Assembly (NCBI GenBank): GCA_963845755.1
Contig: CAWJTV010000011.1
Span: forward strand, 928,001 to 992,000
DNA from: an uncultured Planctomycetota bacterium
GTDB taxonomy: Bacteria; Planctomycetota; Planctomycetia; Isosphaerales; Isosphaeraceae
Length of the DNA: 64,000 nt
Direction of reading: 5' to 3'
Below are positions 5,161-40,986 of the stretch, one piece after another; positions within the stretch are counted from its first letter, which is position 1; each line of letters begins with the position of its first letter. Below the pieces are notes generated by a model. It ran no database searches. It had not been told where the DNA came from and was given only the letters and a program-made list of their open reading frames with translations. The position numbers and the translations under genes are program-made.

Positions 5161-5478
5161 AGCGCGTAACGATTGCATTGCGCACGCCCCCGGGGGCGTG
5201 CGATCGACCCGCCGCAGCCCGGGGGGACGACCTCCGACGGCGGCCCGAAGGGCCGCAGGAGCAAAGCCCCGGGTGAAACCCGGGGTCCGCGGCAGGCCAG
5301 CCCCCATCTCCGGCGGCCTGAAGGGCCGCAGGAGACTTCCGGCACCCCTTCAGGGTGCACGAGGAAGGCGCGGGGTGCACGAGTCCCAGGGTTTCACCCT
5401 GGGCTGGGGTCCCGCGGCCCGTCAGGCCGCAGAACATCGGCTGACAGCGTGTGCGCAACCCATCTGTTATGCGCTCTA
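5158..5478. mobile_element. TA-ended MITE-like element carrying palindromic REP-like units
   Basis: 28-bp terminal inverted repeats TAGAGCGCGTAACGATTGCATTGCGCAC / GTGCGCAACCCATCTGTTATGCGCTCTA (22/28 by eye). Internal hairpins include CCCAGGGTTTCACCCTGGG. Confidence 0.7.
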
Positions 5479-34928: not shown

Positions 34929-36029
34929 ATGAACACCCAGGACATGACCATGATCCTACAGATTGGGCTGTCCGTTATTGCCTCGCTGGCGCTGTCGCTT
35001 CAGGGGATGGTCCAGAACGGCCCTCTGATTGGAATTGACTGCAACTACACCCTGGACATGGCGAAGCGTAACAAAGCGTGGAAAGATCGGTTTGAACTCG
35101 TTGACCCATTCGAGCTGTTCGCAAAGAACGGATGCCGGAACGCGCGCATCCGCTTGTGGGTCGGTGACGATGGGATCAATCGTCTGCGATACGCCACCGA
35201 GACTGCCCGTCGTGCGAAGCAGGCCGGTCTCAAACCGTACCTTGTCGTTTTTCTGAGCGACGAGTGGGCGGACTTTGTAAAACAACCAGCGCCGGTTGTT
35301 TGGAAGAAACTAACACCAGAGAAGAAATTGGCGGCGGTGGCAACATACACGGAAAACGTCGTCATCCACATGGCCAAGAATGGGGTTGACATCGACACTT
35401 TCGAGATCGGCAACGAGATTGATTTTGGAATCTGTGGAGAGTTCGAAGAAGAATGGCCGCGGCGCGTGAGTGTCGAATTCATGCGAACGCAAGTCTGGCC
35501 GCGCATGACGCCGATCCTCAAGGCGGCGCAGGCCGGTGTGCTCAAGGTCCAGCCCAAGGCGAAATTCATCTTGCACTTGTCGCAGTGGAATAACGTCAAC
35601 TATTGCATCTCCTTCTGGCAAGCGATGATCGCCGCTGGAGTGCAACTCGACTATCCAGGGCTCAGCTACTTTCCTTCTTCGGCGAAAGAGCCTATGCAGC
35701 GTCCGTTCAGTTTTCTGCAAGCGCAGGGTGGCAAGATTGTCGAGGCACTGCACAAGCCGGTACTAATCTGCGAGACCGGATATCCAGCCGCCGCCAACTT
35801 CGGCGGGCAGTTCGCAGAGTGGAATCTGCTGGCCGAAGGGTATCCCCTGAGCGACGATGGACAAGCCAAGTGGATCGCCGATCTGGCCGCGGTCATTCGC
35901 CATGATCGAGATTTCGCCGGCGTATTCTATTGGAGCCCGGAATGGTATGACGGCGGGCTTTGGGACGCATTCGCGCTATTCGATACGCACGGCGTCGCAC
36001 GGCCGGGAGTGCGATCGTTGACTCCCTAA
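34929..36029 (+). CDS. Glycoside hydrolase family 53-like (arabinogalactan endo-beta-1,4-galactanase)
   Basis: RIRLWV, SDEWAD, EIGNEI (acid/base), ICETGYP (nucleophile) and GVFYWSPEW. Visibly lower GC than the flanks. Confidence 0.8.
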   Translation: MNTQDMTMILQIGLSVIASLALSLQGMVQNGPLIGIDCNYTLDMAKRNKAWKDRFELVDPFELFAKNGCRNARIRLWVGDDGINRLRYATETARRAKQAGLKPYLVVFLSDEWADFVKQPAPVVWKKLTPEKKLAAVATYTENVVIHMAKNGVDIDTFEIGNEIDFGICGEFEEEWPRRVSVEFMRTQVWPRMTPILKAAQAGVLKVQPKAKFILHLSQWNNVNYCISFWQAMIAAGVQLDYPGLSYFPSSAKEPMQRPFSFLQAQGGKIVEALHKPVLICETGYPAAANFGGQFAEWNLLAEGYPLSDDGQAKWIADLAAVIRHDRDFAGVFYWSPEWYDGGLWDAFALFDTHGVARPGVRSLTP

Positions 36030-36542
36030 CGCGCGTCGGTCTGATCGACGAATGGGTGCGCCGTGGCTAAGGTTTGTCTGGTCTTGTCGGGAGTGCCCCG
36101 ACCCCGCTGGAAGAAGGCGGGTCAAACGTTCCGCTGACCTTCAACCGAAAGGATCGAGGGGACAACAGCATGCGGAAGAAGCGACGTGAGGCCCAGCGTC
36201 AAAGGGCCGAGAGACGTTCGCAAGTTAGGCCACGCATGGGTAAGGCTGGATTGCTTGAACTCCAGTCCCAGTGGGTGTGCTCGATCACCGCCGGGAATGA
36301 CGCTGAAACCCGGATTCCTGTCTCACGGGGGCATGCCATTCACCTCCGTGATCTTCCGGCAGGACACACCCTGCAATGAGCAGGGGCAAGGGATGAACGG
36401 AGGCCCTCAACGTGGACCGGACCTGACCGACAACCACGGGATCGCCTAACGGCAGCAATGCCCAAGGCGACAGAGTCCCCGTAGTAGGCATCGGCCCAAG
36501 GGGGACAGGACACAGGGCTTCACCAAGAACGGGGTGACTCGG

Positions 36543-37045
36543 ATGAGTCATTCAGCCCTACTCAGGCTTGAAGCACTGCGGAAGTGCAACACGGACCTCA
36601 ACTGGGTCAACGCGGATCTGTATCGACTCCTCTACAAGACGGATCTCTACATCGTCGCGTATGAGAAAATCAAATCCGCTCCCGGGAACTTGACTCCTGG
36701 CACCGACGGGATGACTCTCGATGGGTTCTCCATGGATGCCATCGACGACATCGTGGCGACCCTGCGAGACGAGGGTTTCCAATTCAAGCCTTCGCGGCGG
36801 GAATACATTCCCAAGGCAAATGGCAAGATGCGGCCTCTCGGCATCTCATCCCCAAGGGACAAGATCGTCCAAGAGGTCATCCATGTGATCCTCGAAGCGA
36901 TCTACGACAGTCCGAAAGGGCCTACCTTTAGCGACTGTAGCCATGGTTTTCGGCCTGGTCGAGGGACTCACACGGCCCTGCATGAGTTCAGGACCAAGTG
37001 GTCTGGTGTGACGTGGATCATCGAAGGGGATATAAAATCCTGCTT
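36543..37045 (+). pseudogene. ltrA: Intron-encoded reverse transcriptase/maturase, N-terminal part
   Basis: GNLTPGTDG, YIPKANGKMRPLGI...DKIVQE, SHGFRPGRGTHTAL, WIIEGDIKSC, then interrupted. Confidence 0.9.
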
Positions 37046-37068
37046 GGATCGGGCATCTTGATACCCTC

Positions 37069-39114
37069 CTAAAAACGTAAGTTGTTGAGATCTCCTGCCC
37101 GCAGTTGCCGGAACCGGGCCAGGGTCTCGGGAGTGTCGGGAAACAGGTAAGTCCTTCTCTCGAAATTGATGTCAATTTGAATTGTTCCATTGTGGATTCG
37201 ATCATAGATCCAGTGTCGTGGGATATTCAGCTTCATGGCCACCTGTGGGACTGTCAAGAAGCCGGGGATCTGGCGTGGGTGCGATTGATGGCGGTCGCGC
37301 ATCAGACCGTGGCTCAGGCGAAGGAGCTGAACCGTGCTGGGCAGAACGGTTCGGCCCCTGGGCGAACGGAAGCCATCTTGGGTCAACTGGCCGGCGATCT
37401 CCTCATCGGTCTTCCCTTCCCGCGCCAGCCGCAGGATCGTGTCCTCCATCTCTCGGCTGCCTGAGAGTCGGGCCAAGGCGCCCACCGTGACTGCGAGGTC
37501 GGCCTCCGACACGTCACCCCCCTTCCAGACGACGCGACAGTGGACCGTGTCCGGGACCCTCCGATCAACGACGACCTTGTCGATCAGGCATCGCAATAGC
37601 GCCTTCTTCTGCTCCTGTGAGAAGCGGTTGGCCTCCCACCATTCCGGGATCGTCCGCCCGGCGTCACTCAGCGCCTGGCGTGTCGCGCTGTCGAGTCGAG
37701 CCCAGGTCGCTGGCTGCGGCTCTTCTCGTGCCCGCGCCTCTTCGGCCTGCTTGAGTTCCCGTAAGGCGATCTCCCAACGCTTCTCGAGTTCCGCCGTCAC
37801 CAGCCGGTTGTCTGGATCGGACTTCTGGAACTGGCGTTCGGCCAGTCGCGCCTGGTAACGAAGTCGTTCCAACTCTTGCTGCCGTGCCCGATGGATCTGT
37901 TCGTGTTCCTCCGAGAGAGACCCCAGGACGCGCTCGTAGATGTCGAGCTCCGCAGGCGCCAAGGCGGCGAAGAAGACTTGCACGACATGGTCGTCGATCG
38001 GGTCCGCGGGGAGGTACTGGCAAACCGGGACCTGATGTTGTTGGCGCAAATAATTGCAGATATAGTGAGTTTTCGGTTTGTACTGCACGACCATCTGGTG
38101 GCCGCACTCGCCGCAGTAGACAATGCCGTGCAACAAGGCTTTTCCCGGCCGGGGAACGCCTCGGGTCCGATTGCGATCATACTCGCTGTAATTGTCGCGG
38201 ATCATGGCCTGGATTTTCTCATAAGTGGCCCAGTCGATGTAGGCCGGATACTTGTCCGGAATGCGGATTCGCCACCCGGCCATCGGCTGGAGTTTCTGCA
38301 CGGCCGGCTGGTTGGGACCGGTTCGGACCGAGCGGGTGCGCCCGTAGACAAATGCGCCCGCGTAGGCGGGATTCTTCAGGGTCGAGCCCAGACCGGCGAC
38401 CGAGGGCCTCTTCCAGGCGACGTCGCCGAAGGAGTCGCGTCGAGGAATGAGCAAGTTTCGCTCTTTGAAGTACCGGACGACTTTGGCAATGGACCGCAGG
38501 CGGAGGAACGTGGCGAAGACCAGATCGATGCGTCCCTGGACCTCGCGATCCGGATGCTTGGTGACGCGTCCCAGCGGATCACGGATGAGGCCGGTCGGCA
38601 GAGTCAGTGCCAGTTCCCCGCGTTGGGCCTTCTTGAGCACGCCATCGATCAGCCGACCCCGGAGGGTATGGAGCTCCAGCTCGGAGATCTGGCCTTTGAG
38701 CCCGAGCAGAAGGCGACCGTTGGGAGTGGAGGGATCGTAGATCCCATCGCGGTCGCCGATGAGGCAATGACGGTAGCCGCAAAGATCGAGCAGTTGATAC
38801 CACTCGGTGCAGTTTCGTGACAGACGGGTGACATCGTAGGAGAAGATGATGCCGACCTGGCCGAGTGTGACCCGAGTGATGAGTTCCTTCAACCCCTCGC
38901 GTCCCACGACGGTGCTGCCGGTCTTTCCCAGGTCGGCATCGATGATCTCGACGTCCTGGGGATCCCAGCCGCACTCACAGGCGCGTTGCCTGAGATCGTA
39001 CTGGAGCCGTTGGCTCTCCAGATTGTTCAGGACCTGATGAGGGCTGGACTGTCGGATGTAGATCAGGGCCTGGCGGCCCCGGTGGAAAGCCGTTACGAGT
39101 TCTGAGATATTCAT
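37069..39114 (-). CDS. Large serine recombinase (resolvase + recombinase + Zn ribbon + C-terminal HTH-like region)
   Basis: YIRQS catalytic Ser, DVTRLSR, LKNPAYAG and CGECG...YIC motifs. Confidence 0.92.
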   Translation of the reverse strand: MNISELVTAFHRGRQALIYIRQSSPHQVLNNLESQRLQYDLRQRACECGWDPQDVEIIDADLGKTGSTVVGREGLKELITRVTLGQVGIIFSYDVTRLSRNCTEWYQLLDLCGYRHCLIGDRDGIYDPSTPNGRLLLGLKGQISELELHTLRGRLIDGVLKKAQRGELALTLPTGLIRDPLGRVTKHPDREVQGRIDLVFATFLRLRSIAKVVRYFKERNLLIPRRDSFGDVAWKRPSVAGLGSTLKNPAYAGAFVYGRTRSVRTGPNQPAVQKLQPMAGWRIRIPDKYPAYIDWATYEKIQAMIRDNYSEYDRNRTRGVPRPGKALLHGIVYCGECGHQMVVQYKPKTHYICNYLRQQHQVPVCQYLPADPIDDHVVQVFFAALAPAELDIYERVLGSLSEEHEQIHRARQQELERLRYQARLAERQFQKSDPDNRLVTAELEKRWEIALRELKQAEEARAREEPQPATWARLDSATRQALSDAGRTIPEWWEANRFSQEQKKALLRCLIDKVVVDRRVPDTVHCRVVWKGGDVSEADLAVTVGALARLSGSREMEDTILRLAREGKTDEEIAGQLTQDGFRSPRGRTVLPSTVQLLRLSHGLMRDRHQSHPRQIPGFLTVPQVAMKLNIPRHWIYDRIHNGTIQIDINFERRTYLFPDTPETLARFRQLRAGDLNNLRF

Positions 39115-39208
39115 GAATAACCTCCGCGCAGATCGCTGAGATGTCGTCGATGGCTTGCTGTTTCACGGTCTTGGGGAGCTTCGACCAGACGTCTTGGGGC
39201 AGGGACAC
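38975..39208 (-). CDS. Small hypothetical ORF of the recombinase element
   Basis: GGAGGA upstream. MSLPQDVWSKLP...; overlaps the recombinase start, so the true length is uncertain. Confidence 0.4.
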   Translation of the reverse strand: MSLPQDVWSKLPKTVKQQAIDDISAICAEVIHEYLRTRNGFPPGPPGPDLHPTVQPSSGPEQSGEPTAPVRSQATRL

Positions 39209-39438
39209 GGCGTTTCATCCTCCTGGATCAGGGAAAGGAGCTCACGGATGGCGTCCGGAGTCCATTTTGTCCCGGGAAGGGTGATCTGGCTTACCATCGC
39301 GCTGGTCGAGGCGACGGGGATGCGGAGCTGCATCCCGTCGCGATAGGCGACGAGTACATGGCCGGAGCCGTGGGGTGGTCGGGAGATCGAGACGACGGCA
39401 AAACGCCGGCGGAAGAGGGGGTGAGTCGGATCCGTCAC
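39163..39438 (-). CDS. Small recombinase-associated protein (Y4bD/Y4pK- or DUF5372-like)
   Basis: VTDPTHPLFRRRF...LRIPVAST, lying upstream of the recombinase. Family recalled, not searched. Confidence 0.55.
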   Translation of the reverse strand: MTDPTHPLFRRRFAVVSISRPPHGSGHVLVAYRDGMQLRIPVASTSAMVSQITLPGTKWTPDAIRELLSLIQEDETPCPCPKTSGRSSPRP

Positions 39439-39500
39439 CTCAATCTCTTCGGGAAGGGATTGAGGCGGGTTGTGGAACGGGGCATCATGAAAGGGTCTCG

Positions 39501-40838
39501 TTCGACGAGATCGATCACCACGTCCTGGTTTCCCTGATCCGGAAGAGGATCTCGGACGAACGCTTCATCGGCCTGATCTGGAAAGCACTCCGGGCAGGCT
39601 ACCTATGGAGGAAGGAACCGGGGGCCTCGTTTATCGGGACCCCGCAGGGGAGCGTGGCCAGCCCTATCCTCGCCAACATCTACCTGCACGAACTCGACCT
39701 CTTCGTCGAGGGACTACAGCAGAAGTACGAGAAGGGCAGCAAGCGGAAGGACAGCCCCGAGTATCACCGGATCAACTATCGCAGGCAGCGAGCGTTGAAA
39801 CGGTCAGGTGGGATCATGACGCCGGAGATTCGCGCTTTGACGAAACAGATGCGATCTCTCCCGTCGATGGACACGTTTGACCCTGGCTTCGTCAGAGTCA
39901 AATACATCAGATATGCAGACGATTGGATCGTCGGCGTCACGGGGCCGAGGTCCCTGGCCGAACAGATCAAGGACGAGATTCAGGCGTTCCTATGGGACAG
40001 GCTGAAACTGCAACTCAGCCAGGAAAAGACGGTCGTCACTCACGCCAAGACCGAGGAGGCCTTCTTTCTCGGGACGCGGCTTCAGGTGGGGGCCGTCAAC
40101 CCACAGCCCAAGGTTACCCACTGCCACAACCAACGGCGGCACTACCGGCGCCGGTGTACGGGGTGGAGCCCGCTGATGCGAGCGCCGATCAGGAAACTGG
40201 TCAAGCGTCTTCACCAGAAGGGCTTCTGTGACGGTGAGGGCATCGCCCGATCCAAGACAGCGTGGGTCTGCCTGGAGGTGAAGCACATCATCGAACTGTT
40301 CAACAGCACCAATTGGGGGCTGTTGAACTACTACAGGTTTGCTGACAACTTCGCCTCCATGAGCCGTATCCAGTACATCCTGCATTTGTCACTTGCGAAG
40401 ACCTTAGCCCACAAGTTGCAGAAGCCCGTTAAGCAGCTCCTCTGCGAACACGGACGCACTCTGCAATTCAACTGGAAAGACGGCGAGGGGAAGGAACGGA
40501 ACACCTTCTTCAAAGCCAACTCCGACTGGACCCGGAACCCCACGGCATTTCTAACGGGAAGAGATCAAACCGACCCACTGGAGATGCACGTCCGATTCCG
40601 GACAAGGTCCCGCCTGGACCACCCATGCATCATCTGCGAAACAACGGTCGGGGTGCAGATGCACCACGTCCGTCACATCCGAAAGATGGAGGGCAAACCT
40701 GTCGGTGGGTTTGCCTGGCTGATGCGACTCCAGAACCGGAAGCAAGTGCCCGTCTGCCGAGAGTGCCACCGTAAGATCCACCGAGGAGAATATGATGGCC
40801 TCCGACTGGCGGACCTGGCATACCGGGTTGGACCGTGA
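39501..40838 (+). pseudogene. ltrA: Intron-encoded protein, C-terminal part (RT, maturase X, HNH endonuclease)
   Basis: GTPQGSVASPILANIYLHELD, YIRYADDW, FLG, GLLNYY and CIIC...HHVRH...VCRECHRKIH. Confidence 0.9.
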
Positions 40839-40986
40839 CACAAATGTAGATCCTGTGTCTGGAGAGCCGGATGCACGAAAACGTGCCTGTCCGGTTCGGG
40901 AGGGGGCGGTTGGATTCCCTTGAGATCAAGGGGCTGGCCGCCTACCTCATCATTAGCTTAGTCGAAAACCCTGGTCATTTAATGAG

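Follow-up and report, generated by a model that had tools for sequence, protein, structure and literature searches.

Introduction

The described elements closest to the subject of this study, a 2455-bp insert at positions 37046–39500 (minus strand) of a 64,000-nucleotide stretch of DNA (hereafter the window) from an uncultured bacterium of the Isosphaeraceae (Planctomycetota; assembly GCA_963845755.1, contig CAWJTV010000011.1, positions 928,001–992,000), are Tn4451/Tn4453 and Tn5397. Like the insert, these are non-phage elements that rely on a large serine recombinase (LSR; TnpX and TndX, respectively) as transposase, have a 2-bp core, generate no target duplication and, as is predicted for the insert, are excised as a circle; the core of Tn4451 and Tn5397 is GA, and Lyras and colleagues are said to have found in 2004 that TnpX is the sole transposon protein required. 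Phage serine integrases (SPbeta SprA/SprB, TP901-1, phiC31/gp3, Bxb1/gp47) share with the insert the domain set of the recombinase and attachment (att) sites with imperfect inverted-repeat arms, and the IS607 family likewise consists of elements of insertion sequence (IS) size that use a serine recombinase and leave no target duplication. A related logic is found in IS911, IS2, IS30 and IS110/IS621, where DDE or DEDD transposases act and the joining of ends creates an expression signal, a promoter formed at the joint, that integration destroys again. In IS607, as described in PMC6188088, the serine recombinase TnpA is small and has its DNA-binding domain at the N-terminus, and the element lacks terminal inverted repeats. 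The large catalogue of LSRs and their att sites by Durrant (2022, PMC10083194) gives DUF4368 as present in 63% of the members of its multi-targeting clade, and the term 'reverse transcriptase' is absent from the main text of that paper.

The insert divides the reverse transcriptase (RT)-maturase-HNH gene of a group II intron. Comparison with its relatives indicates that it is very probably an IS-sized LSR transposon that homes to the DNA encoding RT motif 3 and carries a small cofactor gene, ORF-A (ORF, open reading frame), that is split by integration. What is new in this system is the splitting of a DUF5372-type cofactor gene; the literature search yielded no report of serine-recombinase elements residing in RT genes of group II introns, and none mentioning DUF5372.

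Anatomy of the insertion and its host intron

A preliminary description of this DNA, made from the letters alone, had the element splitting the RT gene at a TT core, and both junctions read exactly as it gave them. The left junction is ...AAATCCTGC TT GGATCG... (TT at 37044–37045) and the right junction ...GGTCTCG TT CGACGAG... (TT at 39501–39502). Deletion of 2457 bp leaves a single open frame containing ...EGDIKSCFDEIDH..., of 615 amino acids (aa) when read from GTG 36534 or 612 aa from ATG 36543, and both halves of the gene are free of stops; the uninterrupted 612-aa RT-X-HNH protein expected on excision is thus recovered on paper, and its empty site is also found in nature. Five uninterrupted copies of the window intron, 99.4–99.9% identical to it (blastn within the same genome; contigs C34, with two, C7, C42 and C36), each have a single TT at this point. 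This TT is the only sequence common to attL, attR and the five natural empty sites, so that exchange took place at a 2-bp core with no target-site duplication. Such a core, the lack of a duplication and the inverted-repeat arms described below are what serine recombination of attP with attB leaves behind. The features of the insertion and its host are as follows.

36056..40960, plus strand: host group II intron, starting with GTGCG at 36056; identified by blastn, Rfam and its RT, maturase and HNH domains
36534..37045, plus strand: N-terminal half of the RT gene, ending ...GDIKSC plus the TT of a Phe codon; Pfam RVT_1 positions 1–81 of 205
37044..37045, no strand: crossover core TT of attL, common to both junctions and the empty sites
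37046..39500, minus strand: element body, 2455 bp; a 99.9% copy at C26:91221-93675 and a 74.6% copy on C6
39501..39502, no strand: crossover core TT of attR, common to both junctions and the empty sites
39501..40838, plus strand: C-terminal half of the RT gene, beginning F-DEIDH; Pfam gives the rest of RVT_1 (to position 205), Intron_maturas2 and an AI2M-like HNH domain
40862..40950, plus strand: intron RNA domains V–VI; Rfam RF00029 (Intron_gpII), 62 bits against a gathering score of 40, E 7.5e-11

The host is a group II intron in having one ORF with RT, maturase and endonuclease parts, domains V–VI downstream of it, and copies more than 99% identical to each other. By blastn within the genome, a 14.3-Mb draft in 49 contigs (87.9% complete, 3.3% contamination), the other copies align with the window from about 36030 to about 40960. 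The alignment includes some 26 nucleotides (nt) upstream of the GTGCG start (window 36030–36055) that are common to the intron copies and suggest a common homing site; in the window this stretch lies directly 3' of the stop of a 366-aa ORF (34929–36029). The C36 copy, although empty at the TT, is interrupted elsewhere, in its maturase region at the equivalent of window 40330–40348, by an IS21-like element (C36:46523-49020), a call made by eye from its two ORFs, one of them transposase-like (389 aa) and the other containing a GxxGxGKS P-loop.

The recombinase and the element ends

Within the element, the recombinase gene and the two terminal arms occupy the following positions.

37069..39114, minus strand: large serine recombinase, 681 aa; Pfam PF00239, PF07508 and PF13408, with a match to PDB 3g13
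37046..37071, minus strand: recombinase-distal end arm (GGATCGGGCATCTTGATACCC...), delimited by the arm consensus; carries GGAGG at 37065–37069 and ATG at 37054–37056
39470..39500, minus strand: recombinase-proximal end arm (...GGGGCATCATGAAAGGGTCTCG), an imperfect inverted repeat of the distal arm

Three family-defining Pfam domains place the 681-aa protein of the insert among the large serine recombinases. From the N-terminus it consists of the catalytic domain, the recombinase domain, and a zinc ribbon together with a coiled-coil region, followed by additional C-terminal sequence. The Resolvase domain (PF00239, E 2.3e-19) covers residues 16–167, the Recombinase domain (PF07508) residues 196–308 and Zn_ribbon_recom (PF13408) residues 327–380. 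Over the catalytic domain its YIRQSS segment lines up with YCRVST of PDB 3g13, and R21, Q22 and S23 are invariant among 22 relatives, as are the zinc-ribbon cysteines C334, C337, C353 and C365. A coiled coil is inferred for approximately residues 385–485 from sequence and structure model. The C-terminal part shows a weak match to HTH_17 (E 0.0017, below the cut-off), and DUF4368 gave no Pfam match either on the whole protein (E up to 0.01) or on its C-terminal 203 aa (E up to 5).

Read outward from the core, the two arms share the form CGA....CA.CTTGATACCC among the relatives. The 2455 bp hold the recombinase, ORF-A and a second small frame, ORF-B, with no cargo or mobilisation gene. By general usage this is an insertion sequence, of 2455 bp, with only its own mobility functions, inverted-repeat ends and several copies. 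The proposal that it is a minimal IS-like serine-recombinase element parasitising a retroelement is well borne out by its size, imperfect inverted-repeat ends, 2-bp core and lack of cargo. The accompanying statement that it contains just a recombinase and two tiny ORFs is right as to gene content, but both small ORFs are apparently conserved genes, as argued below, and not filler.

Other copies in the source genome and in soil metagenomes

The full element occurs twice in the source genome, in the window (contig C11) and on contig C26, at 99.9% identity, and a third junction is present; such identity points to recent activity. The second copy (C26:91221-93675) lies outside any RT gene, 11 bp inside a repeat of about 100 bp, at a target that in RT orientation reads ...CCCATCTG TT CTACGCTCTAGGCCAA. 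This site fits the right-arm consensus of the RT targets at +1, +3, +4, +9, +14 and +15, six of the eight positions scored as conserved. The 12 other printed copies of the repeat are all empty, and next to the core ten of them have ATG, one has AAG and the one on C15 is unrelated, where the C26 copy reads CTA. We read the C26 copy as an off-target insertion at a pseudo-site; since six of the eight right half-site positions are kept, it would represent an off-target hit and not proof of random insertion. ORFs spanning the rebuilt C26 site were considered as genes and set aside as short and spurious-looking, and the site was treated as non-coding. The repeat itself, which starts cTAGAGCGCAT-AA-CAGATGGGTTGCGCACAC..., forms a family found at window 5377–5468 and at least 11 other places in the genome, often as inverted pairs.

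Two further lines tie the element to RT genes other than that of the window. A relative at C6:34137-36596 (74.6% nucleotide identity; LSR 71% identical, with one frameshift) is flanked by ...GHTEVVDGDLSGY ↓ F-DAIPHAELMKSL... (arrows mark insertion points throughout), and the RT fragment it interrupts is different from that of the window; its N-terminal part ends VVDGDLSGY and matches RVT_1 at 1–81 of 205 by Pfam, the same position as in the window. In addition, soil-metagenome contigs of two sequencing runs (X1 and X3) continue directly from element end 39502 into TGATCAAATCAGCCATAACTGGCTGCTG (...TGATCAAATCAGCC...), which with the TT encodes F-DQISHNWLL. This is the sequence of a second intron family, of which the source genome has five uninterrupted copies (...EGDIKAC-F-DQISH...), and contig C17 starts exactly at the TT of that family. 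The contig joints and the start of C17 together imply that the identical element also resides in a second RT family, at the same codon.

Across four runs (X1–X4), the contigs, which drop rare forms, contained no joint of the kind expected from a circle. A single joint that skips the element (37043 to 39501, run X1) is uninformative on excision, because the uninterrupted intron copies produce the same joint.

These observations bear on the idea, already put forward in the preliminary description, that excision switches intron mobility back on. In its strong form this would make the element a domesticated regulated switch whose programmed excision turns the intron RT on and off, in the manner of the sigK element of Bacillus or the fdxN element of Anabaena. 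Precise excision would indeed yield a 612/615-aa RT in the same frame as the active-looking copies, and both RT halves have stayed free of stops. On the other hand, five intact intron copies elsewhere in the genome mean that nothing depends on the window copy, the same element is found in a non-coding repeat and a second intron family as well, there is no linked host function, and the relatives described in the next section are multi-copy and spread over nine phyla, in unrelated RTs of which many are decayed. Restoration of the RT frame on excision can accordingly be retained from the earlier idea, while the regulated switch is discarded as highly improbable, in favour of a transposon that homes to the RT motif.

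One codon as the target of the relatives

The range of targets was examined by one LSR scan of a species-representative genome collection, which gave 59 loci with LSRs 44–75% identical to that of the window (best segment). Element ends were found with position weight matrices made from the first tblastn-defined junctions, and flanks were translated in the frame that the core dictates. The junction on the side of the RT N-terminus was located in 46 loci, 41 of which gave flanks of at least 20 aa that were submitted to Pfam, and the C-side junction in 37 loci, with 33 flanks submitted. In most loci with both junctions located, the element measures 2455–2494 bp. Database annotation labels these loci only as "recombinase family protein", with the upstream small ORFs unannotated and the split target listed in pieces.

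RVT_1 was matched in 31 of the 41 N-side flanks, and 30 of these 31 matches end at profile position 75–78 of 205, no more than three residues from the end of the flank (in the remaining one, L065, the match stops at position 59). The ten other flanks comprise one Resolvase match (L020), one Pkinase match (L024) and eight without any Pfam match, three of which (L016, L034, L070) still end D-(A/V)-D-(I/L)-x-x-(Y/F). The opposite side gives the complementary picture: of 22 RVT_1 matches among 33 C-side flanks, 21 start at profile position 79–80, at flank residue 1–2. Thirteen of the RVT_1 flanks on this side also contain GIIM and three Intron_maturas2, so that the targets are RTs of group II introns with at least two maturase types.

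A consensus built on 34 distinct N-side and 28 distinct C-side flank sequences reads GAnGnnGAYATnnnnnnnTrY-TT-YGAYnnnATHnnnCAY and encodes (D/E)x-D-(I/L)-x-x-(C/Y/F) ↓ F-D-x-I-x-H, which is RT motif 3. Positions G-15, T-11, T+9 and C+14 are invariant, base conservation reaches 15 nt on either side, and RTs merely 25–35% identical to each other are interrupted at the identical codon. By database labels, the RT-positive loci belong to Planctomycetota, Chloroflexota, Cyanobacteriota, Pseudomonadota, Desulfobacterales, Acidobacteriota, Actinomycetota, Verrucomicrobiota and Chlamydiota, which would place relatives at this one RT codon in at least nine phyla. In a quick tree of 28 distinct intact LSRs (from 30 intact sequences), RT-targeting members fall on both sides of the midpoint root, and members with other targets are nested among them. 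Targeting of the RT motif is therefore strongly supported by these comparisons. It had been raised earlier as a possibility; the same RVT_1 position in the C6 relative, the second intron family and the flank counts above now speak for it.

The recombinase gene lies antisense to the RT gene in all RT insertions with a located N-side junction except L045, where the element has the reverse orientation. This arrangement would leave the translation signals of an intron undisturbed and is one argument for regarding the recombinase cassette as cargo of the intron, spread mainly by retrohoming of the intron RNA with the help of an RT made elsewhere; group II introns accept insertions in their domain IV, and intact copies able to supply the RT in trans are present in the source genome. 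The distribution of the cassette points the other way. It is found in merely one of six copies of the window intron family, while the identical cassette occurs free of any intron on C26 and within a different intron family, and in other genomes near-identical elements occupy different RTs (examples are L030 with L031 and the series L060 to L064). Its boundaries, moreover, are a 2-bp core and inverted-repeat arms, the signature of serine recombination. Spread as intron cargo is hence unlikely, with only a small probability left to it, and movement by the recombinase itself is preferred.

Exceptions and side lineages

Specificity for the RT codon is strong but not absolute, and some side lineages appear to have switched target, often to genes of other mobile elements. 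L020, with a TA core, lies inside another LSR gene, at the DG(L/I)Y ↓ DP motif of its catalytic domain; L021, L022 and L028 have the same target, as judged by C-side flanks or score. These four loci make up a sub-lineage in Acetobacteraceae and Roseomonas. L024, a 52% relative in a Gemmatimonadota metagenome-assembled genome (MAG), has an AA core and divides a Ser/Thr protein kinase gene at its catalytic loop, HRDLKPS ↓ NILI; the left arm of that site, GATCTCAAG, resembles GATATCAAR of the RT site. The core of L047 and L069 is GT, and their surroundings are AT-rich; L049, L063 and L066 lie in flanking DNA without an assigned name, and in L041 and L051 an RT is seen on the C side alone.

Relatives also occur on plasmids, with 449 records at E ≤1e-50, mainly from rhizobia, two of which were inspected. 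One, on a Microvirga plasmid, is a 59% relative that interrupts a DctP gene. The other, on a Bradyrhizobium plasmid (NZ_CP086137.1, 139819-141906), is a 50% relative inside an IS66-family element, with the IS66 transposase gene on one side and tnpB and a transposase gene on the other. In the source genome, an LSR about 48% identical to that of the window and with one in-frame TGA (C9:4852-6873) lies among fragments of IS66-family transposase genes. The C9 and NZ_CP086137.1 recombinases may form a lineage that targets IS66.

Taken at face value, the C26 and Microvirga DctP copies and the several relatives in unnamed DNA, all of which use other sites, could be seen as the outcome of essentially random insertion at TT by a relaxed multi-targeting recombinase, with RT genes prominent only by being abundant and tolerant. 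The flank counts do not agree with this, as one codon is used, with 30 of 41 N-side flanks ending at RVT_1 75–78 and 21 of 33 C-side flanks starting at 79–80. Nor would random insertion be expected to strike RTs of 25–35% identity at the same codon, with bases conserved to 15 nt on each side, or to choose in the C26 repeat a copy that fits six of eight right-arm positions and leave twelve differing copies empty. Random insertion is the least likely of the explanations considered, with next to no weight left to it, and site-specific homing is retained. The comparison with other copies that had been called for earlier, as the means of distinguishing RT targeting from random TT sites, comes out largely for the former, most copies being at the RT codon; an unrelated target was met once in the source genome, in the short repeat on C26.

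ORF-A and ORF-B

Two small reading frames lie at the proximal end, the second of them reaching into the recombinase gene.

39163..39501, minus strand: ORF-A body (DUF5372-like), open from the junction, with an invariant DPxHPL; supported by tblastn, alignment, Pfam and Atlas
38975..39208, minus strand: ORF-B, a small conserved peptide (...VWxRLP...AEVIxE...) in another frame, overlapping the end of ORF-A and the start of the recombinase gene

Conservation of ORF-A extends to 48 loci, at 31–58% identity by tblastn, with D24, P25, H27, P28 and L29 invariant in a 29-sequence alignment and indels upstream of the conserved core in multiples of three. Its match to DUF5372 (PF17342) has an E of 0.0084 and 16.6 bits, under the cut-off of 25, and the assignment is supported by the nearest Atlas clusters, which carry DUF5372 in 29 of 30 cases (best score 0.95), and by precomputed PF17342 matches in five homologues; the database holds 101 homologues, of which 30 were inspected at their N-termini. 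The structure model of ORF-A has a confident four-strand core plus two helices (pLDDT 72.9, pTM 0.47). A Foldseek comparison of this model with the PDB gave no match at E ≤0.001, the best being at E 0.007 or weaker. Its weak top rows were ribosomal protein chains, chain E of photosystem I (PsaE) and a Tudor domain, which we take to be small SH3-like barrels (the ribosomal chains being taken as eS4 from their labels), a likeness that concerns fold class only. ORF-B was seen by eye in the window and in all 14 relatives inspected, and its tblastn hits may partly reflect its overlap with the recombinase gene. On this sequence evidence both ORF-A and ORF-B appear to be conserved genes.

The feature that sets ORF-A apart is its beginning. 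As integrated, 21 of 37 elements lack any in-frame ATG, GTG or TTG in the stretch from the upstream stop to the conserved ORF-A core, and the GTG of the window copy is GTC, GTA or GTT in most relatives, with the frame open to the element end. When the two ends are joined in silico, an ATG located 13 nt before the distal end comes to lie in the frame of ORF-A, without an intervening stop, in all 32 cases (31 loci and the window). The first codons of the joined form (M-H/P/R-D-R/Q-T) span the core. In the window the ribosome-binding stretch and start at the joint read TAG-GAGG-GTATCAAG-ATG, and a purine-rich stretch is present a few bases 5' of the junction ATG in most of the printed ends (read by eye, uncounted). 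Integration would thus part ORF-A from a ribosome-binding site (RBS) and ATG at the opposite end of the element, so that only the circle or a head-to-tail joint could give rise to full-length ORF-A. At the other end of ORF-A, 16 of 37 elements have its stop no more than 4 nt from the recombinase start, or an overlap of 3 or 6 nt between the two; the gap in the window is 49 nt.

A modelled complex of ORF-A with the recombinase

A predicted complex of the recombinase and ORF-A reached an ipSAE of 0.63, against 0.00 for the best control; the mark applied to this score is reached by 116 of 157 solved complexes and by 2 of 215 mismatched pairs, a calibration that is rough here since our own alignments were used. 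Three runs share at least 86% of contacts, with a partner pLDDT of at least 63. On the ORF-A side the interface is formed by residues 25–30, which include the invariant PxHPLF, and residues 75–95, and on the recombinase side by residues 333–339 of the zinc ribbon, 384–400 and 470–489 in the two feet of the coiled coil, and 502–536. The model supports binding of ORF-A at the junction of zinc ribbon and coiled coil, the surface used by directionality factors. The most likely role of ORF-A is that of a cofactor linking the topology of the element to how strongly, or in which direction, it recombines.

Proposed mechanism

It is proposed that the recombinase recognises about 35–40 bp of DNA encoding motif 3 of group II intron RTs and recombines it with the joined element ends, a near-palindromic attP (...GGGTATCAAGATGnnnGATCG-TT-CGATCnnGCATCTTGATACCC...), with exchange at the core TT that forms the first two bases of the Phe codon. 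As nothing is duplicated and nothing lost, precise excision would restore the RT gene. The core TT is not palindromic, which would fix the orientation of the element with the recombinase antisense to the RT. The site is kept constant by selection on the RT protein, and the introns are multi-copy and dispensable; together these properties would make it a safe landing pad in almost any intron-bearing bacterium. By analogy with other members of the recombinase family, the element would be excised as a circle by attL x attR at the TT and re-inserted by attP x attB.

Two readings of the split gene may be considered. In the first, ORF-A produced from the circle would promote or license integration, or its translation would boost that of the recombinase by coupling, an arrangement that would be adaptive for a non-replicating circle. 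In the second, ORF-A would be a classical excision factor, supplied in trans from circles or made from fortuitous internal starts such as the GTG of the window copy. The first is favoured, by no more than a slight preference. A more far-reaching version holds that the element senses its own topology, with a circle-only cofactor at the directionality hotspot driving or licensing re-integration, a polarity opposite to that of phage factors, and that, given at least two other recombinase families (described below) at RT motifs 1–2 and 4, each conserved block of the RT has its dedicated serine-recombinase hyperparasite across bacteria; this is put forward tentatively, with somewhat less than an even chance of being right.

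Several observations weigh against a homing transposon whose cofactor is split by integration. The internal GTG at 39438 could yield a 91-aa ORF-A from the integrated window copy without any joining. Because the conserved ATG lies inside a recombinase-binding arm, DNA binding might be enough to explain why it is conserved, and the case rests on the frame, its openness and the absence of alternative starts. Production from the circle alone would look counter-productive if ORF-A were a classical excision-promoting factor. As to specificity, 10 of the 46 N-side flanks located depart from the pattern of an RT in the usual orientation, and the C26 copy lies outside any RT. The interaction with the recombinase is a model result, and no excised circle, empty-site polymorphism or transcript was observed. 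Finally, the genome is a draft, whose copies may stem from different strains and whose frameshifts may be assembly errors.

Other recombinase elements in RT genes

The source genome contains a second, unrelated element of about 2.02 kb that likewise carries only an LSR, bounded by perfect 22-bp inverted ends (CACGCCCCCAACAATGTTGCAA). Its six copies (C6:31937-33955, C16:2836-4853, C24:276-2294, C3:156926-158946, C47:14622-16639, C22:801-2824) all lie in RT motif 4 (GTPQGGxx ↓ ISP(A/L)LAN), in three different RTs. Both orientations occur, as would fit a palindromic AT core. In five of the six the recombinase frame has no stop at the element end and closes 53 codons further on only if the ends are joined.

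A third LSR family, 33–38% identical to that of the window, interrupts the same RT genes further upstream, at RPLG(I/M)P ↓ ...DK(L/I)VQ of RT motifs 1–2 (L042:6250-9011, L055:6272-8991, and probably also L039 and L058). Some RT genes thus hold two recombinase elements at two conserved motifs. At C6:31365-37196, two different RT N-terminal halves face each other across a motif-4 element, one of them also carrying the motif-3 relative, which looks like the outcome of inversion or exchange between element copies. A similar chimera is seen in the MAG that contains L030, L031 and L057, where L057 combines the N-flank of L030 with the C-flank of L031.

Comparison with known systems

As far as the literature search reaches, these elements form a widespread, unnamed and undescribed class of IS-sized LSR elements whose homes are other selfish elements: group II introns, with IS66 transposase genes and further recombinase genes used by side lineages. 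The element would in this sense be a parasite homing in on another genetic parasite, with relevance to the way mobile elements reach safe sites and to the limits on intron spread. A site fixed by protein selection yet variable at synonymous positions provides dozens of natural attB variants for one enzyme family, useful both for understanding and for engineering LSR specificity, and a cofactor gene spanning attP would offer a simple means of making the direction or level of recombination depend on whether the element is excised. With three genes in 2.5 kb, the system is small enough for reconstitution in E. coli.

Set against Tn4451 and Tn5397, the element has no cargo, no mobilisation gene and no DUF4368, and measures 2.46 kb where they exceed 6 kb; its core is TT, and its one preferred target is a protein-coding motif of another mobile element. 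Tn4451 reportedly forms a promoter at its joint, which parallels the first of the two readings of ORF-A. In contrast to that transposon, however, what the joint of the present element makes or breaks would be the translation start of a small cofactor gene and not a recombinase promoter. The circles of the IS911 type differ from it in the same respect and in their enzymes, as here a serine recombinase is used and the joint would complete an ORF by adding an RBS and ATG. Relative to IS607, the element has a 681-aa LSR with an N-terminal catalytic domain, and its ends are inverted repeats. In comparison with the phage serine integrases, finally, it consists of the recombination module alone, without a phage or island, its cofactor gene spans attP, and its target is degenerate and multi-copy in place of a single chromosomal attB.

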